DNA of 64,000 nucleotides from Patescibacteria group bacterium (GCA_022574205.1 JACZSL010000001.1:5447-69446); one strand, 5' to 3'; positions 2,434 through 19,095 are shown, counted from the stretch's first letter. Notes: generated from the sequence alone by a model not told the origin. Numbers and translations: made by a program.

Positions 2434-2934
2434 TTAAAGTTTATATTCTTCAAAAAACTCTTTGAGTTCTTCTTTTGTCCACCATCCAAAATCATCTGGA
2501 ATTGAGTTTTTATCAAATAAGATTACTTCTGTTACTTCTTGATTGGTCCGTGGGATATCTGCTAATTCAGCAATAACATATGGTGTAAAAGACCATTGGT
2601 TGTCTTTATTTTGAACATCAGACTCAATATCAATTATCTTATAGTCCTTCACTCTAACACCAGCTTGATCTTTAACAATCCTATTGACGCACTTCTCGAT
2701 TGATTCCCCGTACCGGATTAAATTGTGGCAAAAATAAAGTAAACCATTAGGATAATCTTTCGCCTTAGGTGGCAACTCGTGTTCGGGTATCGCGTTTGGA
2801 CGGCGTAAGGCAATATATTTACCATCCTTTTTTAGAAGAATCTCAAAAGTGATATGCAAGCCGCCACTTGCTTGTTTAGCAATTGGAGGAGCAAAATTTG
2901 CCTCTTTATTTTTCCAATCATATTCAAAAGTCAT
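2434..2934 (-). CDS. Nudix-like hydrolase (degenerate Nudix box); start taken at internal ATG (MTFEYDW..)
   Basis: The segment GESIEKCVNRIVKDQAGV approximates the GX5EX7REUXEEXGU Nudix box. The longer ORF version would read through the upstream repeat. Confidence 0.4.
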   Translation of the reverse strand: MTFEYDWKNKEANFAPPIAKQASGGLHITFEILLKKDGKYIALRRPNAIPEHELPPKAKDYPNGLLYFCHNLIRYGESIEKCVNRIVKDQAGVRVKDYKIIDIESDVQNKDNQWSFTPYVIAELADIPRTNQEVTEVILFDKNSIPDDFGWWTKEELKEFFEEYKL

Positions 2935-3011
2935 AGATAAATTATACCAAAAGTTCCAACATAAAGTTGGGTAGGTTAAAAATATGTTGAGAAATAAAGA
3001 TAAATTTGATT

Positions 3012-3063
3012 GTGGACATAGCGGACGAAACTTGCTTATGTCCTGAGTGGAGCGAAGGAGAAC
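3012..3063. repeat. 52-bp direct repeat, copy 2
   Basis: Matches 2348-2399. Both copies are in the same orientation and flank the Nudix-like gene. Confidence 0.85.
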
Positions 3064-3238
3064 CGCATGCATGAATGGATATTCGAAGCGCCCACTTTGG
3101 CTCGCGCCAAGCGAGACAGGTCAGAGGCGATTTCTGTGCTAAATAGCGAAAAAACAGCTTTGGTTTAGGTACAGTTGACATACTTAATCTCAATGATATT
3201 ATTGTCTGGGTCTTGGACCTTAACAATATAGTTATTCT

Positions 3239-3820
3239 ATGGAAATAAGGAGTTTTATTGTGAATAATTGGAAAAAACTTTCCAGCGGCGTTCTCGGCGT
3301 CTTTGTTGTAATTGGACTTTTGTGTGCAATTACGGGCTGTGGAGGCGGAGGTGTTGATACACCACCACCACTTTCATCGCCACCTCCAGTTGACTCCGGT
3401 TTGCCTCCGGATCCCGGAGAAGCAGGTCTCGTAGGTCTTCTCGGTGTTGACTCAGATAACGATGGTGTGCGTGATGACATTCAACGATACATTGCTCTCA
3501 CTTATCCTGATTCTGAAAAGACGCAAGCTGCGTTGACGGAGTTTACCAAAGGTATGCAAGAAGAGTTGGTTAATGCTGAGGACAAGGAATTGTCGATCGA
3601 GATTGCCATCAAAGGCAATATGATGATTTCCTGTATTAAGTACATTAATCCTGAGAATGGTTCGAGGATTTGGAGGGAACTTCGTGCAGAGATCTTAAAT
3701 ACTGAAGAGAGGTCTCGTGCATACATACAATACAACGATCAACTTGGAGGGGAGGTCTTTAGTCTCTTCCCCAGAGCTGCCAGTTCTTGTGGTTTTGACG
3801 TAGATTCACTTCCAAACTAA
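3239..3820 (+). CDS. lipoprotein (signal peptide + lipobox ..LCAITGC, then GGGGVDTPPP linker)
   Basis: Hydrophobic N-terminus ending in Cys, then a Gly/Pro-rich linker. It lies 18 nt upstream of the hydrolase gene. Confidence 0.6.
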   Translation: MEIRSFIVNNWKKLSSGVLGVFVVIGLLCAITGCGGGGVDTPPPLSSPPPVDSGLPPDPGEAGLVGLLGVDSDNDGVRDDIQRYIALTYPDSEKTQAALTEFTKGMQEELVNAEDKELSIEIAIKGNMMISCIKYINPENGSRIWRELRAEILNTEERSRAYIQYNDQLGGEVFSLFPRAASSCGFDVDSLPN

Positions 3821-3837: not shown

Positions 3838-5115
3838 GTGAACAGAATATATCTTGTACTGCTTGCAGTGCTTTTCGCGGTTGTTCCATTTACTGTTGCC
3901 GCTCAGGGCGTTTGTGAAGTCAGAGAGGTGAGTACTGTTGTGGTGTTTGGCAATGGAATTAACACTCCCGAAAAAGATGCTTACGACTTACTTGAGGTAT
4001 TAGAAAAACGTTTAGAGGCAAAACTGCCAGCTGATAAGTTTGAGGGGCTGGAGTTTAACATCGCCTACAATCGCACTGCGGGAATCCTGCTTGACCTCTT
4101 GGAAGCTGCAAAAGACAAGTATCTAATCGATGCAACCAGAGAAATCAGAGATTTCTCAATTGCTTTCTGGAGAGCTCTTGGATACTTGGATATTCTTCCG
4201 GATTGGTTTCAGGAGGCCGCATTGGAATCTGCTGAAAGTCTTACCAGTGCTTCGCTTGTAAACGACAGGGATTTGAGCAACCATTTGGCTCTCTATCGTT
4301 CGAGCATACTTGAAGGCAAAACCGTGCTTTTGGTCGCTCATTCTCAAGGCAATTTCTTTGCCAACAGAGCGTATGAAATTCTCTATGAGGGCTCAAATCC
4401 GATAACAACACAAAGCTTCGGCATAGTGTCAGTCGCAAATCCGTCAAGTTTTGTCGGAGGAAACGGCCCTTATTGGACACTTCATGAAGATGAGGTGATT
4501 AAGAGCGTTGCAAGATGGTCCGCAAGGTTTCTACAACCACCTCCTCTTGTTTCTAACATCGGTAACGACCCAAATGCAGAGCATGATTCATTGACCCACG
4601 GTTTTGTGACATCATATCTTGTAAGAGGAACTAATAGTGAAGAGAAGATTCTCGCTGGCATCGAGACGAGTATTGGGATGCTTGAAATTCCGTTTCCTGT
4701 TGCAGAAGACGGCATTATCACTGTAACGCTTACATGGGGAGTAGAGCCTGACGTTGACCTGCACGTGTTTGAACCAAACGGAACACATGTCTACTATGCC
4801 AATCGATTCGGAATTTCCGGATTTCTGGACGTGGACGATGTTACGTCGTTTGGCCCGGAGCATTACTTTGTCGGGTGCGACACTCTGGAAGAAGGTATGT
4901 ACCGGATTGGTGTCAACTACTTCAGAGGCTTCAATCCTGAAGTTGCACTCGTGCAAATACAGGCAGGCTTTATCATACGAAGCTTTGAGACTCCGCTTGA
5001 AACAGCTGTCGGCTCTTCGGGCAATAACTCACCGATTCTTGTCGCTGATGTTATTGTCGGCATAAACGCCGACGGCGTCTACGAGTTTAGTATAATGTCC
5101 CTTGGTGTTCAGTAG
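3838..5115 (+). CDS. secreted alpha/beta-hydrolase (lipase/esterase/cutinase-like nucleophile elbow AHSQG) with C-terminal beta-sandwich (pre-peptidase C-terminal-like) domain
   Basis: Signal peptide MNRIYLVLLAVLFAVVPFTVAAQG. The nucleophile elbow is LVAHSQGNF. The C-terminal segment TLTWG.EPDVDLHVFEPNG is PPC-like. Confidence 0.6.
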   Translation: MNRIYLVLLAVLFAVVPFTVAAQGVCEVREVSTVVVFGNGINTPEKDAYDLLEVLEKRLEAKLPADKFEGLEFNIAYNRTAGILLDLLEAAKDKYLIDATREIRDFSIAFWRALGYLDILPDWFQEAALESAESLTSASLVNDRDLSNHLALYRSSILEGKTVLLVAHSQGNFFANRAYEILYEGSNPITTQSFGIVSVANPSSFVGGNGPYWTLHEDEVIKSVARWSARFLQPPPLVSNIGNDPNAEHDSLTHGFVTSYLVRGTNSEEKILAGIETSIGMLEIPFPVAEDGIITVTLTWGVEPDVDLHVFEPNGTHVYYANRFGISGFLDVDDVTSFGPEHYFVGCDTLEEGMYRIGVNYFRGFNPEVALVQIQAGFIIRSFETPLETAVGSSGNNSPILVADVIVGINADGVYEFSIMSLGVQ

Positions 5116-5170
5116 CAAATAACCTTAAGTAAAACTTTCCGTAAGAGGATAACTTATATAATTATATAAA

Positions 5171-5205
5171 CCCCACCTGCGCAAGCGCGGGTGGGGGTTT
5201 TTGTT
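5171..5205. terminator. bidirectional hairpin ccccacctgcgc-aa-gcgcgggtgggg + T-run
   Basis: Perfect GC stem followed by tttttg. It sits between the hydrolase gene (+) and a small minus-strand ORF. Confidence 0.6.
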
Positions 5206-5218
5206 TCGCACCGAGAAC

Positions 5219-5368
5219 TTAATTCTCTTTGTTGTGCTTCACAGGAGAAAAAGTGGCCGAGTTGCGGTGAGACCAGGTTTGCGTCTGCGGGTCGTATTGA
5301 CCCCGAACAGCACCTGAGATCTTCGATAGCAACTGTAGCGCCACGGGTTTTGTGGGCTTGTTCAACAT
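5219..5368 (-). CDS. possible small ORF (49 aa, MLNKPTKPVALQLLSKISGAVRGQYDPQTQTWSHRNSATFSPVKHNKEN)
   Basis: GAGGA lies 8 nt upstream of the ATG, and the ORF ends at the shared terminator. It is divergent from the ATP-grasp gene and has no recognisable family. Confidence 0.2.
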   Translation of the reverse strand: MLNKPTKPVALQLLSKISGAVRGQYDPQTQTWSHRNSATFSPVKHNKEN

Positions 5369-5547
5369 GAGAATATCCTCAAAGTCAGTTTAGAAAGAAC
5401 AAACCAAACGTTGTTGTACACAACAAAAACATCTGGACCCATGAAGTGTGACATAATTTATAGTTTCTATCAATATGTTGACATATTGATATTTTATAGT
5501 ATTTTGTAACTAGATCATTATGTTTACAGCTTAGAGGAGTAGCAGCA

Positions 5548-6489
5548 ATGACTATCTTCATAATCACCCATCAGGCAGGATTTGAGGTTGATCCAGTTAT
5601 TGACAGATTAAAAAGTCTCAAACTTCCTTTTGTTCGCTTTAATCAGGACGATGGCGACAATATTTCTAAAGTCGGATTTCTTCGGTCAGATAGCAAGGAA
5701 AATATCTTTTGGACTAGCGACAATAAATCAGTTTCTTTAACCAATGTTGGTTGCGCGTGGTTTCAACAACCCCCGCCATTCACTGGGCAACCGGATAATT
5801 TTGAACAGGCTGTACAAAGAAACAATTTAATAGCATTTCTTGAAGCCACGTTTGACTTTTTGCCAGTAAAATGGCTTAACAGGGTAGCAAACGCGCGTCG
5901 AGCGGCAAATAAAGTTTTGCAGCTACACCTTGCTCCCTCAGTAGGATTAGCAGTTCCGAATACATGTATTTCAAATGACCCACTTACAGTACGCTCGTTT
6001 TGTTCCAAGGGACCGAGTATTGTTAAAAATCTCAATTCCTCATGGATAGCACAGGAGAATGATGCCGTCGTGTCCTCCACAAAGTTCGTGCAAGATGACT
6101 ACATAAAAGATGACCAAGCAATTATATTCTGCCCTCTCATATATCAACAATTCATTGAGAGAAGATATGATTACCGTGTAGTTATACTGGGAGACGCAAC
6201 GTTTGTATCTCGGTGTGATTCAACACTTGGTGATCCCGCAGATGTACGCGTTGACAACAAAACGGGAGCTAACTTCTACCGGGATAAAATACCTCCTGAA
6301 TATATTGAAAAGCTCAAAAATCTAATGGAGATCTTGGGTGTCGACTACTGTTCTGCAGACTTCATTGAGGACCGCGGAGGCAAAATCTTCTTTTTGGAAA
6401 TGAATATCTGCGGTGCCTGGTGGTGGATGGATGAACTCCATGGGGGTGAAATACTTGATTCTTTCGTGAAATACCTGACAACTCGATGA
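5548..6489 (+). CDS. ATP-grasp ligase, RimK/MdnC-like (RiPP/graspetide-maturase type)
   Basis: The N-terminus TIFIITHQAGFEVDPVIDRL and C-terminal FFLEMNICGAWWW resemble the ATP-grasp peptide maturase fold (E-x-N...W). Confidence 0.55.
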   Translation: MTIFIITHQAGFEVDPVIDRLKSLKLPFVRFNQDDGDNISKVGFLRSDSKENIFWTSDNKSVSLTNVGCAWFQQPPPFTGQPDNFEQAVQRNNLIAFLEATFDFLPVKWLNRVANARRAANKVLQLHLAPSVGLAVPNTCISNDPLTVRSFCSKGPSIVKNLNSSWIAQENDAVVSSTKFVQDDYIKDDQAIIFCPLIYQQFIERRYDYRVVILGDATFVSRCDSTLGDPADVRVDNKTGANFYRDKIPPEYIEKLKNLMEILGVDYCSADFIEDRGGKIFFLEMNICGAWWWMDELHGGEILDSFVKYLTTR

Positions 6490-6571
6490 GCCATCAAGAT
6501 GTGTTATCAGCGGTGGTGTGTACACTTCACATCACCGCTATTTTTTAACATATTAAATATTAAAGCAACCT

Positions 6572-7090
6572 ATGAAACTGCGAGAACAACTGGATAAAAT
6601 AATACATATTAACAAAGGTGAAAATTGGTGGAAGCCAAGGTTATTTAAAGATATAACACTCCCACAGCTTCCGAAAGAATTAAAGATTCTTGAATTTCCA
6701 CCTCTCAAAAACAATAATTACAACTGTTTTATTCATACACTCGGTCTCTCCAAGGATGTTGGAATTATAAAAAATAGTGGCGGTTTTATTTATGACACTT
6801 TTTTCCAAAAATTGATTGATAAAAAGGCGCTTATCCCTACAGACCATCCCAAAAACGGAGACTATATTTTATACAGAGACTCCCAAAATTATCCCGACAA
6901 AATCACCCATTCAGGTGTTCTTGACAATGGGAAAGTGGTGTCAAAGTGGGCGTGGGGACCACTTTTGTGCCATGACGTTTTTGATGTTCCCGCGTCTTAT
7001 GGAGACGAGATTTCTTACATAAAGGCAGTCGATCATAAAAAAGCACGGGATCTCTACTGGAAGTATAAAAAGTTTAATAAACTTCCATAG
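6572..7090 (+). CDS. papain-fold (NlpC/P60- or CHAP-like) Cys/His hydrolase candidate
   Basis: Candidate Cys sits in NCFIHTLG. Downstream, GDYILYR....ITHSGVLDNG resembles the GD..ff....HvgIy His motif. Confidence 0.35.
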   Translation: MKLREQLDKIIHINKGENWWKPRLFKDITLPQLPKELKILEFPPLKNNNYNCFIHTLGLSKDVGIIKNSGGFIYDTFFQKLIDKKALIPTDHPKNGDYILYRDSQNYPDKITHSGVLDNGKVVSKWAWGPLLCHDVFDVPASYGDEISYIKAVDHKKARDLYWKYKKFNKLP

Positions 7091-7433
7091 AAGAGTATTA
7101 CGACACACGAGGCTCAACATTGGGTGTATCGGGTGTGGCTTTTCGTTACTCTTTTTCCGTGTTTAGATGCTGTGTATTAACAATGGGGAAATATGCTAGT
7201 ATGGTATAAGGAAAAGTGTAATTATAATTAACACTTGTATGGCGAAAGGTAGAAATCATCAAAAAAGAGAGAAAAAGAAGCCGAAGAAGAGTAAGAAGCC
7301 TCATATTTTCTAACGCTTGTTTTATATTTGCTCGTGGCGTAACCACCACTGTGTGAGAATACCCCCGATCTCTATCGGGGGCACCTTTTATAAAAATTTG
7401 CATTGTTGAATACTGATAGTTAAACTGAACAAA

Positions 7434-8351
7434 GTGACTACCATAGAACAATTAAAAAAGAGTAAAAATATATATGACATTAAGGCGGTTAAACTGACCA
7501 GCTGTATTGGTTTGCTAAAGAAAAGATGTACATCTGAAGTTTTGCGTGAAATAACTAAAAATTCACGATTAATTAATGTTTATGACATTACGTATCGCTC
7601 ACAAGGACATAAAGTTAAAGGTTTTATTGTCGAGCTAAAAAAACTAAAAGGGAAGTTACCATGCATTATTTATAATCGTGGCGGGTCGGGAGAATTTTGC
7701 GCAATTAAAATCGGGGAAACATTTCTGCGGTTGGGTAGGTTTGCCAAATGGGGATACATAGTTATAGCTTCACAATATTCTGGAAACGCGGGAAGTGAAG
7801 GTAAGGATGAAGTTGGCGGAAGTGATATTGAAGACGTTTTAAATCTTAAAAAGATATTAAAAAACCATCTGCACGCTGATGAAAAAAGAATCGGTATGTT
7901 TGGTATTAGTCGTGGAGGGATGATGACATATTTATCTCTTGCGAGAGTAAAGTGGCTAAAAGCAGCTGTATCGATTGCAGGACCAACAAATTTTAAGCGT
8001 GAAGAAAAGTTGAGGCCAGATATGAAGCGGAGGAACAAAATGTTCTTTGGGGGAAGTAAAAAGGCGCTTAGAGATCGTTCTGCCGTTTATTGGACTGATA
8101 AATTTACCAAGAAAACACCACTTCTCATGCTTCATGGCACTGCGGACTGGCGCGTAAGTCCGTTGGATTCGTTGGATTTGGCAGAAAAGCTTTATGAAAA
8201 TAAGGTCCCGTATCGCTTAATTATGTACGAAGGTGCAGATCATGGATTAAGTGAAGTTCGTGAAGAGGCAATGCTAGAGGTCAGAAAATGGTTTGATAAA
8301 TATCTAAAAAATAACGGAAAATTACCTGATTTAAAACCACACGGCAAATAG
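7434..8351 (+). CDS. S9-family (prolyl oligopeptidase/acylaminoacyl peptidase-like) alpha/beta serine hydrolase
   Basis: The nucleophile motif is GMFGISRGG. LMLHGTADWRV and EGADHGL form the Asp/His part of the triad region. Confidence 0.65.
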   Translation: MTTIEQLKKSKNIYDIKAVKLTSCIGLLKKRCTSEVLREITKNSRLINVYDITYRSQGHKVKGFIVELKKLKGKLPCIIYNRGGSGEFCAIKIGETFLRLGRFAKWGYIVIASQYSGNAGSEGKDEVGGSDIEDVLNLKKILKNHLHADEKRIGMFGISRGGMMTYLSLARVKWLKAAVSIAGPTNFKREEKLRPDMKRRNKMFFGGSKKALRDRSAVYWTDKFTKKTPLLMLHGTADWRVSPLDSLDLAEKLYENKVPYRLIMYEGADHGLSEVREEAMLEVRKWFDKYLKNNGKLPDLKPHGK

Positions 8352-8437
8352 AAACAAAAGTAAACAAAGAAGGGAAAAGAAGAAGCCGAAGAAGGCTAAA
8401 AAGTAGCTTAAACGGCTTATTTTCTGGGTAATTAGAC

Positions 8438-8507
8438 GTTCTATGCGCGAGGACCGACCTCGTGTGTGGACCGTTCTGTGCGCGAGGACCGACCTCGTGT
8501 GTGGGCC
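8438..8507 (+). repeat. 35-bp tandem direct repeat x2 (gttctRtgcgcgaggaccgacctcgtgtgtggRcc), each with internal cgagg/cctcg hairpin
   Basis: Two adjacent units differ at two positions. They lie 160 nt upstream of the 8670 gene. Confidence 0.85.
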
Positions 8508-8669
8508 TCGTTGTGTAGTGGAAAAGGCGCAATACCTTGCAGGAGGTTGTGCTTTTTTGAGAAGGTTGTACAATTTGGGGTAGACAGTGTTCTAAAATCA
8601 TGTTGTTTTTAGGACATTTTTTGACATTTATACATATTCTGTAAACAAACTTACACCAGGAGGTGTACC

Positions 8670-10337
8670 ATGAAAACACAATTTGGTTTTCTAAAGCTCT
8701 CGCGAGTGGTTACGCCACTCTTCCTCTTCTTTTTTCTGACAAGCTGCGGAGGTGGAGGCGGAGATACGCCCCCACCGCCACCACCTGTGGCCGATAACCC
8801 ACCCACCGTATCGATAGATTTGCCAACAAATGGCGCGACTGTGTCCGATATGGTTTCAGTCGAAGTAACGGCATCCGACGACAGGGGGGTTTCAAAAGTT
8901 GAACTCTTTGTCGACAATGTGTTGTCGTCGTTTATGACATCGGCGCCGTATGACTTTAGTTGGGATTCAACGGCGGTTGCAGACGGAGCGCATATCCTTA
9001 AGGTGGTTGCAACTGACACCAATAATCAGACCGCCACCAGTCAAATCACGATAACAAGTGATAATGGTCCTGTTACATTTCGCATAGACAAGCATCTATT
9101 GACGCCAGTGGCGGTTTACAAAGATGAACTTCCCACTGCTCTTATCACGTATCAAATAGAGATGCAACTTCCGGAGGGTTGGACAGCTTTTGTTCGATTT
9201 AACCGCAATACATTTGTGGTTGGAAACCATGACCTTGTCAATATTCCAATCGAGGATGACGATGGCGACGGTGTTTGGGAAGTAACTTTTGCTACCGGCA
9301 TTCCAGAACCTACTATTGAGTCGCGCGATGGAAAAACGGGTTATGTCAATATTCACATTTTCCTTCTTGATGAAAATGGTATGGAGGTTTTCATTAATTC
9401 TCCAAACGGAGCAAGCTCTAGAACATATCTGGGTGTAGTAGACCGTTCGATTAACTCCACCTTGAGCGCCACGTCCTCTCCTTCAATCATGAGGACTCGC
9501 TCCGCAATATTTTTGCGCGCGGATGACTTCCAGGGAACACTTCAGGATGTCCCAAGAGTCACGCGAACTGTGTACAGCGTCTACGACGATCGTTTTGACT
9601 ATCTGATTGTGTCAAACATTGGGTGGTCATACGGAACTGGTCCAAGAGGCGGGGGTATAAATCCTGCTTCTTTCGGTAGTGCGGGACGTCTCAAAGCAAG
9701 AGCATGGATGAATGACAGCCACAGCCATATAGGTGCAATACACGAAATACTGCATCATCGTCTGTTTTTCTTCAACGATCCCGCTCTTAATATGACCGTA
9801 GGAGATCTTAGGGGAGTTCATATGGGCGCCTGTAGTGACATTGGCCCCGTGTCCATAGGAAGATTTCTGACTGACAATGGAGACGGAACATCCACTTCGG
9901 GAGAACTAAGAACAGCCGATGGCGGTCCGTTAAGTCAACTCGCACTTCGGATGGCGGAGATATCGGCCTGGTGGAATGGTTTCCTTCCGTCGTTCACGCC
10001 TTTCAGGTGTGTGACGGATGAAAGCGTAGATGTGTGGTCCTCTGAACCAATATCAAATTCGTTGATTTCAACAATTGACGAAAATGCGGTCATATCTGTC
10101 TACGGCAATCCACCCTTGTCATACGCAACAGGTCAAAAGGATTATAACGGCATTCTGCTCGTCATATCCCAAGACGGATTTCCTGACGCGGCAACAGCTG
10201 ATTATTTCACGGCGCTCGGAGATCATCTGGCCGGAACAAGCGCCGGATACATGACGAGCAAATTCTTTGCAAGTCCCGGAAGTTTTAACTGGACTACCCG
10301 TGGCGAAGCAATACTGTCGTTTCCGACAGTTCCGTAG
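8670..10337 (+). CDS. lipoprotein zinc metallopeptidase (HEILHH) with N-terminal Ig-like domain
   Basis: Signal peptide plus lipobox (LTSCGGGGGDTPPPPPP). An Ig-like segment VSVEVTASDDRGVSKVELFVDN follows, then the HExxH motif HEILHH. Confidence 0.6.
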   Translation: MKTQFGFLKLSRVVTPLFLFFFLTSCGGGGGDTPPPPPPVADNPPTVSIDLPTNGATVSDMVSVEVTASDDRGVSKVELFVDNVLSSFMTSAPYDFSWDSTAVADGAHILKVVATDTNNQTATSQITITSDNGPVTFRIDKHLLTPVAVYKDELPTALITYQIEMQLPEGWTAFVRFNRNTFVVGNHDLVNIPIEDDDGDGVWEVTFATGIPEPTIESRDGKTGYVNIHIFLLDENGMEVFINSPNGASSRTYLGVVDRSINSTLSATSSPSIMRTRSAIFLRADDFQGTLQDVPRVTRTVYSVYDDRFDYLIVSNIGWSYGTGPRGGGINPASFGSAGRLKARAWMNDSHSHIGAIHEILHHRLFFFNDPALNMTVGDLRGVHMGACSDIGPVSIGRFLTDNGDGTSTSGELRTADGGPLSQLALRMAEISAWWNGFLPSFTPFRCVTDESVDVWSSEPISNSLISTIDENAVISVYGNPPLSYATGQKDYNGILLVISQDGFPDAATADYFTALGDHLAGTSAGYMTSKFFASPGSFNWTTRGEAILSFPTVP

Positions 10338-10369
10338 CTTCACGCAGTTTACAGACCAATGTAGATTTA

Positions 10370-10399
10370 CCCGCTCTTGCAATGAGAGCGGGTTTTTTT
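10370..10399 (+). terminator. hairpin cccgctct-tgcaatg-agagcggg + T7
   Basis: Canonical intrinsic terminator directly after the 10337 stop. Confidence 0.6.
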
Positions 10400-10529
10400 A
10401 TTCATCACAGTAGGGTGTGGGGGTGTGTATAACACCACTATACTTCAGTTCATTTTCGCAATACAATACAGACCAAGAAAGCCGTGGAATGCGGCAGAGC
10501 TTGTTTTTATAACATTTTATATTTCTATG

Positions 10530-10991
10530 GGAAACAAACACACGCTATTCACTATTATTGTCATAGTTATCGTGGCCGTTGGTGTATATCAGATTTTTGA
10601 TTCTGGAGGTAATTCCGGCGGGTCTGCAGTAGTTGACAAAGAAAAGGCAGTCGAAGCTGCTTTTGAGGAACTTCTGGATACTCTGAACGTGAACGTGGTC
10701 AGACTTGCAGACAATGACGCCAATGGGCTATATCTGGTTCATCCAGACACCGGCATGACGTTCTACACAACTCCCGGAGAATGTGTCGGGGAGTGTTTGG
10801 TCAGGTGGCCGCCTCATACGGCCAAACAGGCGTTTGAGGATGGAAGTATAGGAACCACGCTTCGATCTGACACGGGAGAATACCAGTACACATGGAAAGG
10901 AGAAGCGCTTTATACATTTACTGACGATGAGTTTCCAAACAGTGTTTTAGGCGATGGATTTAAGGATGTTTGGAGGATTGCAAGGCCATAA
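10530..10991 (+). CDS. secreted/membrane-anchored protein with COG4315-like (Y.Y..D...GDG..W) motif; start at MGNKHTL
   Basis: TM/signal segment followed by a short Gly/Ser-rich linker (DSGGNSGGS). The C-terminal region YQYTWKGEALYTFTDDE...GDGFKDVW is COG4315-like. Confidence 0.45.
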   Translation, partial: GNKHTLFTIIVIVIVAVGVYQIFDSGGNSGGSAVVDKEKAVEAAFEELLDTLNVNVVRLADNDANGLYLVHPDTGMTFYTTPGECVGECLVRWPPHTAKQAFEDGSIGTTLRSDTGEYQYTWKGEALYTFTDDEFPNSVLGDGFKDVWRIARP

Positions 10992-11007
10992 TGTTTAGTT
11001 CGCGTAT

Positions 11008-13002
11008 ATGTCAGCGCAAAATATTTTCAGCATAAACAGAAAAAAACTCTTTCTAGTTCTCATAGTGCTTTTTGCCGTGCTGGTTTTTGCATTTCCACAA
11101 ACCACGTCGGCGGCATCTATAGCAACCACCGGACAATCCGCGGATGGATTTCTATGTAGTGATTCTTGGACTACGCCTTTTATGAGTACTGCCATCACCT
11201 GGGCTACAAACCAAGGTGTGCCAGGGCCGGATGTTCTAAACATGAGAAATGATATTTTTAGTTTTTTTGGGGCTCCAGGCGGACCAGAAGGAAATATAAA
11301 AACATTGTCAGATAGCAGTGGAGTTTTAAGTTGGAATCTTCGTCAAGTTCAGGGAATTCCTGGGGATGGTCAACGTTGCCAGGCGAGAATCACCGCGGCC
11401 ACTAGTTTTCCACCTCCTCTACCACCAGAAATAACAATAGACGCAAATGGAAATGATCCAGAAACAATAACAGAAGGAGAGAGTGTAATAATAAACTGGT
11501 CTGTTGCAAATAATAATTCTGGCAGTTGCTCTGCAAGCGGAGACTGGTTTGGGTCGAAAAATCCAACAGTAGGCAGTGAGTCCCAAGGTTCACCGAGCGC
11601 AGGACCATATACCTACACATTAGAGTGTACTAACTCCGACGGCTCTGATACCAAGTCTGTAAACGTTACCGTCAATTCTGCACCTCCAGAACTCACTGTC
11701 ACTCCTCCGTCCCTTGCTTTTGGGGATGTGACTGTGCTCTCCCCATCATTACTTGACTTTACTGTAACGAACACGGGAGGTGGAACGCTTTCAGGAGATG
11801 TTCTGTCCGCCGGTCTCACTACCCCGGAATTTGAGTGTTTAAGTAACTGTTTCTACGGTCCAATTTCTGTCGGTGCCCCATGGGATGTCACAATACGTTT
11901 CATTCCAACTGACACGATAAGCTACAGTGATACAGCAATATTTTCTTGCACATCAGGGTGCAGTAATGCTGATCAAAGCAGAGATGTGACAGGAAACGGG
12001 GTTGCGGGGCCGCCGCCAACAGCTGACTCGTTTGATCCTCCAACCGCTACAATTGCACAAGGCAGCACTGTCACACTTACATGGACGAGTACAGGCGCAG
12101 ATCCGGACGGGTGCACAATTGATGACTCAACCACAGGAATTCCGTACACCCCTCTTGCCGAAGATGGAACTTTGGATGTACAGCCTGACTCTGACACAAC
12201 ATATACTCTCACCTGTTCAAATGCATCCGGCGCATCGAACGCGCTCACATCAGTTATTACCGTAAATCCTCCTCCACAGATCACAGATTTTAGAGCCACA
12301 CCAGACACATTTACTGCTCCGGGATCCTCCATACTTGATTGGGATTCTACTGGAGCGACAAGTTGCTTAGGATCTGGATTTAATACAGGTGGAGCAACAA
12401 ACGGTTTTGTTACTGTCTCACCAAGCGTCACAACAACATACATGCTAACGTGCTCAGGTCCTGGCGGACCAGATCATGTTCTGACTGTTGACGTGACTGT
12501 GAACGAGCCGCTGAATGTAACTTTGGACCCGGGAGATAGTAGTGTGGTCGAAGGACAATCAACAATTCTCAGTTGGGATGGTGGAGGAGCGACGAGCTGC
12601 ACAGGATTTGGATTTAATACAGGCGGAGCAACAAGCGGTAACGTGCAAGTGACACCAGTGGCACCTGCGTCAACATACAGAGTGACATGTACTGTTCCCG
12701 GAGACTCAGACACCGCTGAAGTAATAATAACGGTAAAAAGCCCTGCAATTAGCATTAGTGTTAATCCTCGGATAGTAATTCCCGACAGGACAATAGTGAT
12801 ATCGTGGACGACAGTAGACATGGACTCCTGTGAATTGCTTGACCCCGGGGGCATTGGTGTTGCAAGCGGTATCAATAGTTCCTACACCACGCCAGCAATC
12901 ACAGCTGACGGCACGTATACGCTAAACTGTACCGCATTGGGCGAGCTCTTTTCAGCCACAGTCATGGTAAAAATATTCAGCCCACGGTTTGAAGAAATTT
13001 AG
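11008..13002 (+). CDS. large secreted surface protein with repeated Ig-like beta-sandwich domains
   Basis: Signal peptide present. Three ~90-aa internal repeats follow (e.g. TGGATNGFVTVSPSVTTTYMLTCSGPGGPD and TGGATSGNVQVTPVAPASTYRVTCTVPGD). Confidence 0.6.
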   Translation: MSAQNIFSINRKKLFLVLIVLFAVLVFAFPQTTSAASIATTGQSADGFLCSDSWTTPFMSTAITWATNQGVPGPDVLNMRNDIFSFFGAPGGPEGNIKTLSDSSGVLSWNLRQVQGIPGDGQRCQARITAATSFPPPLPPEITIDANGNDPETITEGESVIINWSVANNNSGSCSASGDWFGSKNPTVGSESQGSPSAGPYTYTLECTNSDGSDTKSVNVTVNSAPPELTVTPPSLAFGDVTVLSPSLLDFTVTNTGGGTLSGDVLSAGLTTPEFECLSNCFYGPISVGAPWDVTIRFIPTDTISYSDTAIFSCTSGCSNADQSRDVTGNGVAGPPPTADSFDPPTATIAQGSTVTLTWTSTGADPDGCTIDDSTTGIPYTPLAEDGTLDVQPDSDTTYTLTCSNASGASNALTSVITVNPPPQITDFRATPDTFTAPGSSILDWDSTGATSCLGSGFNTGGATNGFVTVSPSVTTTYMLTCSGPGGPDHVLTVDVTVNEPLNVTLDPGDSSVVEGQSTILSWDGGGATSCTGFGFNTGGATSGNVQVTPVAPASTYRVTCTVPGDSDTAEVIITVKSPAISISVNPRIVIPDRTIVISWTTVDMDSCELLDPGGIGVASGINSSYTTPAITADGTYTLNCTALGELFSATVMVKIFSPRFEEI

Positions 13003-13021
13003 GAGGTAGATATTGAAGAAA

Positions 13022-13056
13022 AAGAATCCTTGCTTTAAAGCAAGGATTCTTTTTTG
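13022..13056 (+). terminator. hairpin aagaatccttgc-tttaaa-gcaaggattctt + T6
   Basis: Perfect 12-bp stem, again built on GAATCCTTG/CAAGGATTC. Confidence 0.6.
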
Positions 13057-13214
13057 TATCACCTTATACGGTGGGAGTCCTAGTCATTACCCGTGACACT
13101 TGACTTCCGTTTATTTTTCAGTCACGATATATGAAGATGTTCAGGGCTTTTTTATGCTTGGCTAGCTAAACGCGTAAATGCCGTCATAATCAACCCTAAA
13201 CAGCAGTATGTGGC

Positions 13215-13228
13215 GGTATTTGTATTCC
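13215..13228. repeat. 14-bp direct repeat ggtatttgtattcc, copy 1
   Basis: Exact copy at 14221-14234. The two copies bracket the two-gene module 13252-14060. Confidence 0.7.
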
Positions 13229-13251
13229 AACTAACTAAAAAGAGTTAGAAA

Positions 13252-13710
13252 ATGAACGTACAACCAAGAACTGTCAAACAGGCATACGATGCTATGAAGA
13301 AATGGGATTTCAGCGTCGTTGAGAATTACCTGGAACGGAAAAAGGGTTATGCTGTCGAGAAGATCGCTGGTATGAAGGAAGAGTATATGCGCTTCCTCTC
13401 GCTGGTGATCGGCGAGCAAACCCCTGCTCCGATCTCGTATGAGGTCGATCCTTTCTGGCATGTGCATGTTCTGCATACGATGAACTACATCCCCTTCTCG
13501 CAAGAAGTGGCTGGTGGCTTCCTTCATCACAATCCTGTTGCGACTGAAGAAGAGCGTCTGGCACTACAAGATGAATACGATGGATTCATCGCGCTGTACA
13601 AGAAGCATTACGGCGAACCTGACCCTGCATTCTGGGGTGGTAGCGACATGGTGTGCATATGCTGCTGTCCTGGTAGTATTTCGCCCCTGCCACAAGGCAT
13701 GGCGGCTTGA
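13252..13710 (+). CDS. hypothetical protein with DPFWHVHVLHT motif and Cys-rich C-terminus (CICCCPG); possibly DUF1399/glycine-rich-domain-like (uncertain)
   Basis: Visibly GC-richer than neighbouring genes. The family name is recalled from the motif only. Confidence 0.4.
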   Translation: MNVQPRTVKQAYDAMKKWDFSVVENYLERKKGYAVEKIAGMKEEYMRFLSLVIGEQTPAPISYEVDPFWHVHVLHTMNYIPFSQEVAGGFLHHNPVATEEERLALQDEYDGFIALYKKHYGEPDPAFWGGSDMVCICCCPGSISPLPQGMAA

Positions 13711-14060
13711 TGAGTAAAGGACGTGGTGTAAAAACCGCGTCCAATTTTATTACTATGATTATAGAAAAAATAAAAAAAGAAAAAGTAGAAGAACTCAAAG
13801 CATGGGGCAAACGTCTCATGGGTGATTTGCATGAAGAAGCAATAGCCTCAATGCGAGAGGAAAATATAACACACGAGTACATGGGCATCTTTGAGATTGA
13901 TGGAGAATGGTATGGAGTTGGTTTTATGCAAGGAGAAAATATACAGCCAGCAACTGATAAAGAAATTAATAATGCACATAAAAAGATTATGAAAGAAGCA
14001 TGCGGTAAGAGAATATCTATTGAGACTATCTATCGTTTAAAAGATAAGGATGATTCCTAG
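13710..14060 (+). CDS. small Lys/Glu-rich hypothetical protein, translationally coupled to upstream gene
   Basis: Its start overlaps the upstream stop (cTTGATGAgt). It is much more AT-rich than the partner gene. Confidence 0.4.
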   Translation: MSKGRGVKTASNFITMIIEKIKKEKVEELKAWGKRLMGDLHEEAIASMREENITHEYMGIFEIDGEWYGVGFMQGENIQPATDKEINNAHKKIMKEACGKRISIETIYRLKDKDDS

Positions 14061-14185
14061 TTTCTATTAAGAGTTTGTATTTGAAATATACACGACGGAA
14101 ACATATCAATAATTTCACTCTGCTCTAATTCTTCCTGTATCTTCCTCCAATTAAGAGTTCTGAACCTACCCTGTCGCTGGAGCAA

Positions 14186-14223
14186 AAAATAATTTACCAA
14201 GGTCCGACCTCCGCACGGAGGTC
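14186..14223. terminator. perfect 18-bp-stem hairpin accaaggtccgacctccg-ca-cggaggtcggaccttggt
   Basis: A/T runs flank it on both sides, consistent with a bidirectional terminator. Confidence 0.6.
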
Positions 14224-14234
14224 GGACCTTGGTA
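14221..14234. repeat. 14-bp direct repeat ggtatttgtattcc, copy 2
   Basis: Exact match to 13215-13228. It overlaps the right arm of the hairpin. Confidence 0.7.
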
Positions 14235-14364
14235 TTTGTATTCCTCGTCCACATAAAAAAGATTGACACTTTGTCACTTCTAGTGTACACATACGCACAG
14301 ACTGGAAACTAAGTCTAGATCTTTTCAAAATTCAACTTCATAAATTACAGAAAGGAGAGCTATT

Positions 14365-15450
14365 ATGCTCAAGAAACTACTGCTTACGCTTGTACTCATG
14401 CTCGTCTCGAGTATGACATTTGCAGGTCAGTTTGCTATACCGCAGCACTCTGTTATTGCACAACGTGGAGACACAGTTCTCGGGACGTGGTGGAGTTTAC
14501 ACCACATCGGATTTGAGGCAATTGGTATCAATCAAAATGCCTATTGCGACATTTTCCGAGCTCGGAATGCACAGTTTTTCTCAATCAACACTCGTGGCTG
14601 CACAAACTCCGGATTCAATAAGTTAGGGACAGGAGTTGTTTGGAACATTCCGATTCCCCCCGTAAAACTTGTCGCCGCTTCCGGTGAGGTAATCATTCTT
14701 GCCGAAAGGCCCGATGGTTCATTAGTCCCCGAAATTATGTCGCAAGAGGAGGTGGCAATAGCAGGGGCAATGGCCACGGAGCGTGAAATGTCTGCTTTGC
14801 AAGTCAGCGAGCTTAAAAGTGAGCTTCTAAATGCATCCGACACAATTGTGGAGAATGAGTCAGAAATTCGAGCGCTAGAAATTGTTGTAGGTCAATACCG
14901 ACAGGCCGAGGAGAGCACGTCTCTTCTGGCAAAGTCTCTTGGCATTGTTGGCCTGCTGTCAGCCACTCTTATAGCAGTGGGTGCGGCATTGCTCATATCT
15001 CTATACCCACTGATGAAGCGAAAAAACAGGAAGCTTGCGGCAGAACTGGAGGAGGTTAAGAAATCACGCGATGCTTTACGCTCCACTCTGGAGGGAGAGA
15101 ATAAGGCGCTTATGGCAAAGATAAAGGAGATTCGTAACCGAGAGAAAAGACTGCGTAGGGCGATATTAAGAACGAACGTTTTGCTGGAGTTGCCAAGCGA
15201 TTTAAGGCAGGTTGACGGCCTTGATGTGTACTTACCGATACTTCGTTTTGTAGACAAGGATGTCAATAACATTCCTGTAGTATATCTTCTGGGGGCGCCG
15301 AACGGGATTGTCTTTGATAACCCAAAGAAAGTGTGGAAGCATCTTTCAGAATACGGAGAGGCTGCAGAAAAGTCCCGGAGGCAATTGGGCATCGAAAGGT
15401 GTGTTGTCACACTAAGGAGCGGTCAAGACGTCGCTCAACTCCAAAAATAA
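14365..15450 (+). CDS. secreted/membrane protein (signal peptide, one TM, C-terminal coiled coil)
   Basis: The start is MLKKLLLTLVLMLVSSMTFAG. A hydrophobic segment LGIVGLLSATLIAVGAALLISLY lies mid-protein. Confidence 0.5.
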   Translation: MLKKLLLTLVLMLVSSMTFAGQFAIPQHSVIAQRGDTVLGTWWSLHHIGFEAIGINQNAYCDIFRARNAQFFSINTRGCTNSGFNKLGTGVVWNIPIPPVKLVAASGEVIILAERPDGSLVPEIMSQEEVAIAGAMATEREMSALQVSELKSELLNASDTIVENESEIRALEIVVGQYRQAEESTSLLAKSLGIVGLLSATLIAVGAALLISLYPLMKRKNRKLAAELEEVKKSRDALRSTLEGENKALMAKIKEIRNREKRLRRAILRTNVLLELPSDLRQVDGLDVYLPILRFVDKDVNNIPVVYLLGAPNGIVFDNPKKVWKHLSEYGEAAEKSRRQLGIERCVVTLRSGQDVAQLQK

Positions 15451-15733
15451 CTACTTATGAAACTGGAAGGCGAGGGAAACCGAGTGCGGAAGGTATTCAT
15501 CATAGGTTTGACTCTGAAGGTCTTAAACAGATGCGGAAGAGTAGATAGAGTAGATATGGTAGATTGGGGCGCTGTTGTGGTAAAACACACAGCGCCTTTT
15601 CATTTTACCCCCACACCTTTCATGGCGTTGTGGTTTTTGCTAAGTAAGTCAATATGGTGGTGTACACAGAATTTAATGATGAATTTAGTTATTATTGCAG
15701 TATGTTAAACAAACCACGTTTCGCCACGCCATT

Positions 15734-15777
15734 AAAGGTGTGGGGGTTTACATATAAAGGTGTGGGGGTTTACATAA
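15734..15777 (+). repeat. 22-bp tandem repeat x2 (aaaggtgtgggggtttacata)
   Basis: Adjacent near-identical units. An inverted partial copy, acccccacaccttt, lies at 15607-15620. Confidence 0.8.
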
Positions 15778-15803
15778 AAAAAACCCGCCTTTTTAAGGGC
15801 GGG
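15773..15803 (-). terminator. hairpin cccgcc-tttttaag-ggcggg with A8 on plus side (T8 on minus)
   Basis: Lies between convergent genes and would serve the minus-strand gene 15826-17118. Confidence 0.55.
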
Positions 15804-15825
15804 CCTCCATAATGAAGTTTGGGAA

Positions 15826-17234: not shown

Positions 17235-17283
17235 CTACCTTTAAAACAGCGTTATTTTCTGGTACTATTTTGCCGATGGCAGA
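17235..17283. repeat. 49-bp direct repeat, copy A (ctacctttaaaacagcgttattttctggtactattttgccgatggcaga)
   Basis: About 85% identical to 19518-19568. It covers the last 11 codons of the 17252-17764 gene and includes a degenerate trpS-like start ATGGCAGA. Confidence 0.8.
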
Positions 17284-17764
17284 GAAGGGATTGCTTTATT
17301 CCTCTTTTATATTTTTCAAGTGAGGGAAGACCGAGTGACTCTCGTCGCTTATCTACATTTTTTTCGTCTCTTATGGGTAGAAAAGCAACGCTACCATTTT
17401 TTACTTTGTATTGTGTGCCGTACATTTGCTCACCACCTGAAATTACTTTAATTTTATCTACCAACATCGCCTCATCTTTTCTTTCTACATTTGAATCATT
17501 CTGTCGGTGCATTTCTAAGTATTGCTTCATAAGGGGAATATCACCAGAGTGTAGAACCAATACTAACATTGCTTTATATGTGTTTTCTCCGTATTGCTTT
17601 GTGACAATACCATGTTGTTTAAGAATTTGTTTAACCCTTGTTGTATTCTTTTTCACTCGCTCCAGCCAGATTCGTCTGTCAATTTTGCGTTGAGAAAATG
17701 CAGCGATTATTTCTTGATCGTTTTTGAGAAGCCCTCTTAGCTCTTTGATTATATCTTTCGTCAC
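17252..17764 (-). CDS. hypothetical protein (170 aa), last gene of graspetide cassette
   Basis: GTG start. Its C-terminus is encoded by repeat copy A. No family recognised. Confidence 0.45.
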   Translation of the reverse strand: MTKDIIKELRGLLKNDQEIIAAFSQRKIDRRIWLERVKKNTTRVKQILKQHGIVTKQYGENTYKAMLVLVLHSGDIPLMKQYLEMHRQNDSNVERKDEAMLVDKIKVISGGEQMYGTQYKVKNGSVAFLPIRDEKNVDKRRESLGLPSLEKYKRGIKQSLLCHRQNSTRK

Positions 17765-17853: not shown

Positions 17854-18009
17854 TTAGATGGTGTCACTACAATCGGAATAAGGATCCTTCGTGTCGGTTT
17901 CCATCGCAATGCCAGGTTCACTGGCATCTGCCACATCCACCTCAACTTGTTCCGCAAATTGAAACATGAAGGGGTCCAGCGGTGTTGAAGGATCGTCGCT
18001 CTTTTTCAT
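17854..18009 (-). CDS. candidate graspetide (microviridin-like) precursor peptide, 51 aa: MKKSDDPSTPLDPFMFQFAEQVEVDVADASEPGIAMETDTKDPYSDCSDTI
   Basis: GGAGA lies 5 nt upstream of the ATG. The leader has PFxFxF like the PFFARFL motif. The C-terminal core TDTKDPYSDCSD is T/K/S/D-rich. The ORF is 75 nt downstream of the ATP-grasp gene. Confidence 0.5.
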   Translation of the reverse strand: MKKSDDPSTPLDPFMFQFAEQVEVDVADASEPGIAMETDTKDPYSDCSDTI

Positions 18010-18084
18010 ACATTTCTCCAATCGGCCGTGTTGATTCAGAGTCGTTGTAGCTTCAGATTTACTCTAACAAAAACTTGTTACTTG

Positions 18085-19095
18085 TCAACCGTGTAATAAG
18101 TCTATCAGAGCTTGCGAAATCGGTAGCCCCACCTCAAGTTCGGATGGTAGCCATTGTCCTTGAGGGTTAATTTCAAAGAATGTATAACCATCTCTTTCTG
18201 AATAACCTAAATCTATACAACCAAAGACTAGCCCTAGCGAAAAAGTTATATCACGGCAGAGTGCCGCAATCTTAGTGGGGAGAATATGCTCGGAGTAAAT
18301 TCTGCGATAGTTATGATGTCTCCAATCAACGCCATGGTTGTATCCATAAAGAGATTCGCCCACAATTTTTACTGCAAAGACCTTTTTACCCACCACCGTA
18401 ACGCGTACATCAAATTCCTTTTTTACCTCCTCCTGTAGAATAAATGGGCAGAGAGGAATACTGTCCAGATGTGCCTTAATCACTTTTTGCGACACCCGTC
18501 TAGTATATATGACTCTATTAAGCCTCTCCTTATCCTCTTTTGCGGGATTCAGTCGCACAAAACTACTGCAAACAGGTTTCACTATCATGGGCTTACCACT
18601 AAGATGTTCCAAAAAAGCAAGTGCCGCCTTCCGAGAATTACCAACACACGTTTCAGGGATACGCCATCCGATGCGTTGTGCAACGTGTAGCTGGTATGGC
18701 TTACGACCAGATATTCTTGTTGCCTCAGGCTCGGAAACCCACCTCACACCGTTGAGTAAGTGTGGAAAAGACCTTACGTATGCTTCCGTCTCCTCCAATA
18801 TATATCTCTCTTTCATGTCATAAGGCTCAGCTCGGTACTTGCCGCGAGGACGTCGCCACCAAACGCTCTTAACATTCTCCACAGAGAAGTTAGCGGCACT
18901 AGTGAGGAACCTTCTGTCTGGGCCATTTTGTCCGACTAGATACGATGATTCGAAACCATTGGGGTATCCACCTATGTCAAGTGTGACGTGGTCAACTCCA
19001 CGCTGATTCATTCTCTCTTGCACATATTTTGCGTGTGCGTCAAGAGAATGAGAAACAATTAAAACAGTGTTCTTCTGCATTTCAACTCTCCTCAA
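18085..19095 (-). CDS. ATP-grasp ribosomal-peptide maturase (MdnC/MvdD-like)
   Basis: N-terminus TVLIVSHSLDAHAKYVQERMNQRGVDHVTLD. ATP-grasp C-terminal motif TFFEINPQGQW. Confidence 0.65.
   Translation of the reverse strand: MRRVEMQKNTVLIVSHSLDAHAKYVQERMNQRGVDHVTLDIGGYPNGFESSYLVGQNGPDRRFLTSAANFSVENVKSVWWRRPRGKYRAEPYDMKERYILEETEAYVRSFPHLLNGVRWVSEPEATRISGRKPYQLHVAQRIGWRIPETCVGNSRKAALAFLEHLSGKPMIVKPVCSSFVRLNPAKEDKERLNRVIYTRRVSQKVIKAHLDSIPLCPFILQEEVKKEFDVRVTVVGKKVFAVKIVGESLYGYNHGVDWRHHNYRRIYSEHILPTKIAALCRDITFSLGLVFGCIDLGYSERDGYTFFEINPQGQWLPSELEVGLPISQALIDLLHG

Follow-up and report, generated by a model that had tools for sequence, protein, structure and literature searches.

The DNA considered here, hereafter the window, is a stretch of 64,000 nucleotides from a Patescibacteria group bacterium (GCA_022574205.1, JACZSL010000001.1:5447-69446), a member of the candidate phyla radiation (CPR), and the region of interest lies between positions 5,219 and 8,351. 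We regard this region as, with good probability, a compact graspetide locus, i.e. a locus for an omega-ester or omega-amide peptide of the RiPP class (peptides made by ribosomes and modified after translation), in which the accompanying hydrolases most likely process the precursor. Macrocycles of the graspetide type inhibit proteases or have other biological activities. The centre of the locus is a conserved pair of divergently transcribed genes: an open reading frame (ORF) of 49 amino acids on the minus strand and an ATP-grasp ligase gene on the plus strand. An earlier, sequence-only reading of the same DNA had described a three-gene module of ATP-grasp ligase, papain-fold Cys/His hydrolase and S9 serine peptidase with no obvious precursor. 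The logic of the locus is nevertheless ordinary for graspetides; the precursor was merely overlooked, and this is not a new kind of system. Within the graspetides it appears to represent an undescribed group, distinguished by a core poor in acceptors and by hydrolase partners of an unusual kind. The features of the gene pair are as follows.

5219..5368, minus strand: predicted precursor peptide gene (stop included), 49 amino acids, MLNKPTKPVALQLLSKISGAVRGQYDPQTQTWSHRNSATFSPVKHNKEN; from homologues and alignments.
5369..5547, no strand assigned: AT-rich control region (31% GC) from which the precursor and ATP-grasp genes diverge.
5548..6489, plus strand: predicted graspetide synthetase (ATP-grasp ligase), 313 amino acids; from TIGR04187 and solved relatives.

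The first clue to the precursor came from the genomic context of homologues of a 172-amino acid protein encoded downstream (described below), where a 46-amino acid ORF was found on the minus strand, upstream of an ATP-grasp gene whose product is 62% identical to that of the window. This ORF and the 49-amino acid ORF of the window have in common the pattern YDxxTQTWSHRNxxxFSPVKHNxE. When the two peptides were combined into a profile, 34 of 46 loci that had been retrieved by ATP-grasp homology each gave a match to one small ORF (E<1e-3). The loci without a match are mostly short or cut contigs, and two of them (L051 and L052) hold a truncated ATP-grasp match only. The ORF is never more than about 3 kb away from the ATP-grasp gene, whether in a divergent or co-directional position or beyond a neighbouring gene, and it is the sole conserved small ORF across these loci.

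In the whole 64-kb window the precursor-family profile matched the minus-strand ORF alone and no plus-strand precursor, in agreement with what had been reported earlier for the plus strand. The broader claim that the locus has no obvious precursor fails because this ORF is a conserved precursor, with 88 relatives among database proteins clustered at 90%, all of them named 'hypothetical'. Among 1.84 billion representatives of 50%-identity clusters, searched exhaustively, there were 59 matches, about 45 of which are peptide-sized. The ORF is preceded by a GAGGA Shine-Dalgarno sequence 7 nucleotides 5' of its ATG, as had been noticed before, but it is omitted from the source's gene predictions and matched no Pfam or NCBIfam model. 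Its relatives are mostly Patescibacteria; one clear member, WP_246219490.1 (P0144), belongs to the cultured actinomycete Phytoactinopolyspora halotolerans and one locus (L012) was binned as Gammaproteobacteria. The family reaches beyond CPR bacteria. Another relative, P0154, carries an Arg/Pro/Ala-rich N-terminal extension.

In the aligned peptides a variable N-terminus is followed by a leader motif and then by the core, with which the protein ends. The leader helix motif reads KPVALQLL in the window and SLLxRLFEPVPE in most relatives. The core, which in the window spans from about Gly23 to the C-terminus, has the consensus G-x-Y-D-P-x-T-Q-T-W-S-H-R-x4-[MF]-S-P-V-K-H-N-x-E-x. Invariant in 40 aligned sequences are Leu13, Gly23, Tyr25, Thr31, Arg35, Ser41, Pro42, Lys44 and Glu48, and near-invariant are Gln30, Trp32, Ser33, His34 and His45; Asn often replaces Asp26, and residue 36 is Asn, Asp, Glu, Gln, Lys or Cys. 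When loci are compared, synonymous differences are seen at 7-15 (mostly 9-13) of the 27 core codons, which indicates selection on the peptide and not on the DNA. The peptide has what is expected of a graspetide precursor, namely a leader and a core with Thr31, Ser41 and Lys44 as potential donors and Glu48 as potential acceptor.

In its first half (G-x-Y-D-P-x-T-Q-T-W-S; 5261-5302, minus strand) the core resembles a Kelch-like beta-propeller blade motif, a likeness that points tentatively to a beta-hairpin. Large proteins matched by the precursor profile were considered as fused precursors and rejected, as they are instead beta-propeller repeat proteins with FDTSTQTWASLG blades; P0200 is a multi-repeat FDTSTQTWASLG protein of this sort.

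The ATP-grasp protein begins with MTIFIITHQ, ends with the C-terminal FFLEMNICGAWWW and matches TIGR04187 at 2.1e-44 over residues 2-310, followed by MvdC and MvdD at 1e-37 to 1e-36; its description as an MdnC-like ligase with these termini was correct. Assignment to a primary-metabolism family would have spoken against it, but the corresponding models (RimK and glutathione synthase) reach just 1e-6 to 1e-2. Five solved relatives were found at E<=0.001 (CdnC, 5IG8, 5IG9, AMdnB and an MvdD-like protein), all deposited as graspetide-type ATP-grasp ligases. The best of these is CdnC (7MGV, 1.8e-26), with 5IG8, 5IG9 and 7M4S next; the 5IG8 and 5IG9 entries, titled 'ATP grasp ligase', we take to be MdnC and MdnB. 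The pre-ATP-grasp domain PF21068 scores E 0.005 in the window protein, below its cut-off, and precomputed matches to it exist in five relatives (P0070-P0074). Lys160, Asp271 and the Glu284-x-Asn286 motif fall in conserved alignment columns. The closest relative, at 69% identity, is in locus L064. On these sequence comparisons, the protein is placed as a member of the graspetide-synthetase clade of the MdnB/MdnC type with a predicted pre-ATP-grasp leader-binding domain.

The remaining features of the region are the following.

5171..5196, no strand assigned: G+C-rich hairpin between the end of the upstream gene (5115) and the precursor stop; from a terminator scan.
6509..6539, plus strand: terminator-like hairpin with a T-run between the ATP-grasp and Cys/His genes; from a terminator scan.
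6572..7090, plus strand: DUF7689-family protein of 172 amino acids with a predicted NlpC/P60-like papain fold; from profiles, a structure model and neighbourhoods.
7239..7313, plus strand: possible mini-gene of 24 amino acids, MAKGRNHQKREKKKPKKSKKPHIF; from an ORF, a promoter-like site and a hairpin.
7434..8351, plus strand: S9/DLH-type alpha/beta serine hydrolase, single-domain, 305 amino acids; from PF00326.
8358..8403, plus strand: copy 2 of a 46-nucleotide imperfect direct repeat; from a repeat alignment.

The 172-amino acid protein (NCBI IID26_00065) is encoded by an ORF starting 82 nucleotides past the ATP-grasp gene and carries the Cys...GD...H arrangement recognized earlier, as Cys52 (NYNCF), Gly96-Asp97 and His113 (ITHSG). 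Among 47 homologues, Asn51-Cys52-Phe53, His113, Ser124-Lys125, Trp128-Gly-Pro and His134 are invariant. In the AlphaFold model (predicted local distance difference test score, pLDDT, 96), Cys52 is placed at the N-terminal end of a helix, His113 and His134 belong to beta-strands, and an extra three-helix segment is present at the N-terminus. DUF7689 (PF24738) gives the window protein 19.5 bits against a gathering cut-off of 22.6, and all 47 aligned family members match it at E<=0.1 (best 3e-7). A fold search with viral models returned NlpC/P60 proteins best (E 5e-4, probability 1.0). The predicted structure thus supports the earlier assignment to a papain/NlpC-P60-like Cys/His fold at the level of the fold, not as strict family membership. 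The result that would have counted against the earlier reading, a protein showing no likeness to Cys/His hydrolases, was not obtained.

Altogether 67 homologues of this protein were found, and those with a named source are all from Patescibacteria. Its gene directly adjoins the ATP-grasp gene in 11 locus records, which represent 9 distinct loci from at least 3 ATP-grasp branches, with ATP-grasp proteins 34-62% identical to that of the window. A neighbour-joining tree puts the ATP-grasp-linked copies in several basal groups and the stand-alone copies in other clades, and many stand-alone copies sit amid toxin-antitoxin, Fic, HNH or GIY-YIG genes. Co-occurrence with the ATP-grasp gene, which had been proposed as a check, is borne out by these 9 loci, yet many copies of the Cys/His gene stand alone. 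We conclude that the protein is a real but facultative accessory of the ATP-grasp, and its role as a leader or processing peptidase is taken as the default reading.

A second type of hydrolase, an S9 peptidase of about 610 amino acids, lies beside the ATP-grasp and precursor genes in 19 distinct loci. Loci that lack the Cys/His gene almost always have this peptidase, so that the two hydrolase genes are nearly mutually exclusive across the fetched loci. This long S9 matches PF00326 at 2e-40, its closest solved relative is the acylaminoacyl peptidase 1VE6 (2e-29), and it has about 380 extra N-terminal residues, which in L064 give weak or faint matches to Tricorn_N and Tricorn_2nd. The complementary distribution suggests that both hydrolases do the same job. 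L064 is instructive here: a 608-amino acid S9 peptidase is encoded upstream of the precursor, and 3' of the ATP-grasp gene (3384-3600) are a terminator hairpin and the decayed first ~25 codons of a Cys/His gene, in which the ATG has become ATA and an early stop follows (…LQKQLDKII*). This combination suggests that one hydrolase replaced the other.

The third gene of the window was rightly called S9, with PF00326 at 1.5e-24 (87 bits, cut-off 22.6) and the motifs GISRGG (Ser159), GTADW (Asp238) and GADHG (His270) in that order. It is, however, not the conserved partner. At just 305 amino acids it has no beta-propeller and falls outside the oligopeptidase architecture, and its best solved relatives are alpha/beta hydrolases of 252 amino acids (9PIR, 1.2e-13). 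That it might be a truncated long S9 was rejected, with 26% identity over 152 amino acids and better scores for unrelated small hydrolases. No ortholog was found in any other fetched locus, including the other Cys/His-carrying loci and the closest ones, and the gene is separated from the Cys/His gene by a 343-nucleotide spacer that holds a promoter-like site, a mini-ORF and a strong hairpin terminator. The three genes do not, then, form a conserved unit as had been described. From its sequence we regard the window S9 as a lineage-specific neighbour, at best a non-orthologous stand-in for the long S9. Although less likely than not, a functional link to the cluster is kept as a possibility because three kinds of serine alpha/beta hydrolase, none orthologous to another, turn up near such clusters, namely the long S9, the window S9 and, in L024, an Abhydrolase_6 protein encoded after the Cys/His gene.

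A mechanism can be proposed on this basis. The N-terminal pre-ATP-grasp domain would bind the leader helix, and the ATP-grasp enzyme would phosphorylate the side-chain carboxylate of Glu48 to an acyl phosphate, which would be captured by Thr31 or Ser41 to form an ester, or by Lys44 to form a five-residue lactam. The resulting macrolactone or macrolactam would be the one obligatory ring, and a second ring via Asp26 or residue 36 may be possible in some members. The DUF7689 enzyme, like the long S9 elsewhere, would then remove or trim the leader near the G-x-Y-D-P junction, as a recurrent, separately transcribed accessory hydrolase in place of the ~610-amino acid S9. Export may be provided by an ATP-binding cassette (ABC) transporter, which is found in some loci, e.g. 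L001; none is adjacent to the cluster in the window. It may be speculated, by analogy with microviridins, that the S-P-V-K loop would suit an inhibitor of trypsin-type proteases.

Several observations weigh against this interpretation. Glu48 is the single invariant acidic residue of the core, which is atypical for a graspetide, and the current RODEO graspetide module rewards [DE]x0-3[DE]x0-3[DE] and an acceptor-rich core, neither of which the 49-amino acid peptide has. The number of rings and their partners are what we infer rather than observe. The missing acceptor pattern probably explains why the ORF was at first set aside as lacking a typical graspetide core; that remark holds in so far as the core is acceptor-poor, with one invariant Glu, but the peptide is still a conserved leader-core precursor. 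It may also explain why neither the motif and the accessions nor a co-occurring S9 (PF00326) was found in the available parts of two large surveys. The ATP-grasp protein scores below the curated cut-offs of TIGR04187, TIGR04185, TIGR04184 and TIGR04192 (152, 129, 125 and 64 bits against 350, 425, 475 and 230), and from these scores we place it in a separate lineage within the superfamily. For the Cys/His protein, a Foldseek search of the PDB put NlpC/P60 and CHAP proteins on top with weak E values (0.02-0.1), NLPC_P60 (PF00877) was sub-threshold in 4 of the 47 family members, and the family profile found no match in the PDB. Its link to the ATP-grasp gene is also loose: a hairpin with a T-run splits the two genes in six loci (the window, L001, L009, L024, L045 and L050), and in two loci they are convergent. 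None of six long contigs sampled through the Cys/His family, with no selection for ATP-grasp, holds an ATP-grasp gene (L003, L006, L055, L060, L062 and L063), and the same is true of the contig of the closest homologue (L065, 73% identity). On most of these contigs the neighbours of the Cys/His gene are toxin-antitoxin, Fic, HNH or GIY-YIG genes.

These observations bear on four alternatives. The first holds that the Cys/His hydrolase, and elsewhere the long S9, opens the ester or isopeptide cross-link or degrades the peptide, for immunity, editing or turnover. Comparable enzymes are the amidase half of glutathionylspermidine synthetase/amidase and Atxe2, a lasso-peptide isopeptidase of the S9 family, to whose model the window S9 is weakly matched (E 4.9e-4, far below the cut-off). 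NlpC/P60 enzymes classically cut gamma-glutamyl amide bonds, i.e. those of a side-chain carboxyl, and a Glu-Lys lactam would be a bond of the same type as these substrates. The Cys/His gene, moreover, is usually its own transcription unit or convergent, and the many stand-alone copies in variable islands with toxin-antitoxin, Fic, HNH and GIY-YIG genes show a pattern typical of orphan immunity genes. On the other side, our literature search found no graspetide-opening enzyme, the complementarity with an acylaminoacyl-peptidase-like S9 equally fits ordinary proteolysis, and a protein with no signal peptide could protect the cytoplasm only. We judge this alternative unlikely, although the idea of a hydrolase reversing the bond made by the ligase, which underlay the analogy with glutathionylspermidine chemistry, is an open and serious rival. 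If the partners were indeed cross-link-opening enzymes, the stand-alone DUF7689 genes of CPR bacteria would be orphan resistance genes against the graspetides of neighbours.

It is likewise rather improbable that the system consists of the precursor and the ATP-grasp alone, with the Cys/His and S9 genes as unrelated downstream neighbours. Such a view accommodates the window S9, which has no ortholog in the fetched loci, little identity to the long S9, a terminator-bearing gap before it and a direct repeat on both sides, as well as the terminator ahead of the Cys/His gene, the many stand-alone copies and the L065 contig without an ATP-grasp gene. It does not readily explain adjacency in 9 distinct loci, as chance adjacency in genomes of about 1000 genes would be far rarer, nor the complementary distribution of the Cys/His gene and the long S9, nor the recurrence of a serine hydrolase near these clusters in three non-orthologous forms. 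A more elaborate proposal, that of a new group with a single-acceptor core whose N-terminal half mimics a Kelch blade hairpin and in which the DUF7689 enzyme, or alternatively a propeller-bearing S9, would not remove the leader but open or re-form the cross-link as isopeptidase or esterase, immunity factor or macrocyclase, we consider doubtful.

The 49-amino acid ORF might also encode a partner or chaperone of the ATP-grasp, similar to 'LPL' or the rosaritide partner protein, and not its substrate. Small conserved non-precursor proteins are described for graspetide loci in the available portions of PMC8939145 and PMC13097080, and the core of the peptide is acceptor-poor; but no other small ORF is conserved in these loci, and its N-terminal helix motif followed by a conserved C-terminal Thr/Ser/Lys/Glu stretch is the standard leader-core layout, which makes the partner role very unlikely. 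The suggestion that the ATP-grasp and a CHAP-like amidase act on a small-molecule or non-ribosomal substrate in the manner of glutathionylspermidine synthetase/amidase, with no ribosomal precursor, has the co-location of the two genes as its sole support and is hardly credible given a conserved precursor, an ATP-grasp homologous to graspetide synthetases, the absence of GSP_synth among the Pfam and NCBIfam matches listed for it, and a match to CHAP (PF05257) in just 1 of the 47 Cys/His family members (E 0.033, below threshold), so that the pair fails as a synthetase/amidase and the earlier analogy finds no support in homology.

A graspetide locus with processing hydrolases being the preferred reading, some further features of the region can be set beside it. 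The 5171-5196 hairpin has 11 pairs, 9 of them G-C, and a T-run, lies 23 nucleotides past the precursor stop on the minus strand and, to judge from its sequence, probably acts as a bidirectional terminator. Inside the control region (5369-5547) is a promoter-like TTGACA-16-TATTTT at 5478-5505 on the plus strand. A scan of 4500-9500 for Rfam families gave sub-threshold chance matches only. GC content was tried as an indicator of horizontal acquisition and proved uninformative (0.37-0.42 here, window mean 0.41).

The 14-mer AGAAGCCGAAGAAG that had been said to bracket the S9 gene is indeed exact at 7276-7289 and 8381-8394. Shuffled sequences held a mean of 0.04 matches, and none of 100 shuffles had three; the repeat is not due to chance. 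It is the core of a 46-nucleotide direct repeat with 78% identity (7253-7298 and 8358-8403) that flanks the window S9 gene. Copy 1 lies in the Lys-rich mini-ORF of 24 codons at 7239-7313, which is accompanied by a promoter-like site (7177-7205) and a strong hairpin terminator (7362-7381), so that 7177-7381 looks like a tiny transcription unit. Copy 2 reads ...QRREKKKPKKAKK* in one frame with no start codon; this peptide is near-identical to that of the mini-ORF and the DNA differences are synonymous. The idea that copy 2 extends the S9 gene through a -1 frameshift at TTTAAAA was rejected, because the -1 frame does not encode the Lys-rich peptide. The pair may be a gene and its relic, or else a non-coding element rich in purines. 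At 8437-8506, in the gap that follows the S9 gene and precedes the next one, is a tandem direct repeat of two 35-nucleotide units with 94% identity, each CGTTCT[A/G]TGCGCGAGGACCGACCTCGTGTGTGG[A/G]C with an internal inverted repeat.

Upstream of the locus, a plus-strand gene at 3239-3820 encodes a 193-amino acid lipoprotein with a Cys-Gly-Gly-Gly-Gly lipobox tail and precedes a gene (3838-5115, plus strand) for a 425-amino acid secreted protein with a lipase-like AHSQG nucleophile-elbow motif and no significant family match. The Gly-rich lipoprotein start of the former recurs in a 555-amino acid Big_7 protein at 8670-10337. Locus L058 is from a near-identical genome, with a 172-amino acid protein 100% identical to that of the window; it has two tandem genes for 555-amino acid Big_7 proteins (12099-15807), whereas the window at 8670-13002 has one Big_7 gene and then different genes, a difference that may reflect either strain variation or assembly. 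Two other loci contain candidate tailoring genes: in L045 a radical S-adenosylmethionine (SAM) protein with a Cys-rich C-terminus (7370-8797), about 800 nucleotides after the Cys/His gene, and in L009 a convergent SAM methyltransferase (2883-3485).

The window also holds a graspetide module of the PFF type at 17854-19095 on the minus strand. It comprises an ATP-grasp gene (18085-19095, PF21068 2.8e-10), a precursor gene directly downstream (17854-18021, 55 amino acids, MEKCMKKSDDPSTPLDPFMFQFAEQVEVDVADASEPGIAMETDTKDPYSDCSDTI) and, next after it, a gene for 170 amino acids (17252-17764). The two ATP-grasp proteins of the window are just 23% identical, and the two modules are independent.

Graspetide clusters of CPR bacteria are not new: Makarova et al. 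2022 (PMC8939145) distinguish CPR graspetide branches 1 and 2 and raise as an open question what graspetides do in these ultra-small, host-dependent bacteria. The available part of Carter et al. 2026 (PMC13097080) gives 43 graspetide groups. The present core motif and accessions were not found in the text and supplements of both surveys in so far as these are available, and the precursor family is undescribed as far as our literature search went, although such absence is not proof. S9 (PF00326) is not listed as co-occurring with any of the 43 groups in the available supplement of PMC13097080, no S9 partner was found in our search of the graspetide literature, and for DUF7689 that search found nothing. 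The locus therefore gives a concrete, previously uncalled precursor family, together with two alternative hydrolase partners that are new to graspetides within the reach of the same search. With a single invariant Glu in the core, the ring system would be unusually simple, and heuristics that look for acceptor-rich cores would probably miss it. The locus is also a cautionary example of how easily opposite-strand RiPP precursors are dismissed.

Among known hydrolases, NlpC/P60 and CHAP enzymes are like the modelled 172-amino acid protein in having a Cys at the N-terminal end of a helix and two conserved His residues, one of them on a beta-strand, whereas the latter has neither signal peptide nor cell-wall-binding domain. 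The lack of a signal peptide also sets it apart from the CPR-associated 'cluster 23' lipoprotein of Makarova et al. Transglutaminase-fold proteins occur in graspetide clusters according to the available part of PMC13097080. S9 proteases are known to act on RiPP precursors (PMC12957482; also reference 120 of PMC10885120, as far as that source is available), examples of RiPP-processing S9 enzymes being FlaP in class III lanthipeptides, WprP2 and the lasso isopeptidase Atxe2. A propeller-bearing long S9 likewise neighbours the precursor in the loci studied here; the window's own, propeller-less S9 differs from these systems.

The closest solved enzyme relatives are those of microviridin and chryseoviridin (MdnA-C, CdnC), and the leader helix is analogous to their PFFARFL; it also recalls the leader signature 'Phhx(1,2)h' (PMC8939145). 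Microviridin has two ATP-grasps, a TxKxPSDx(D/E)(D/E) core and a GNAT gene, whereas the locus at 5219-6489 has one ATP-grasp and neither of the other features, and hence falls outside microviridin (graspetide group 1). With graspetides in general it shares an ATP-grasp of the MdnB/MdnC type and a linked small precursor that has a leader helix and a Thr/Ser/Lys/Glu core.

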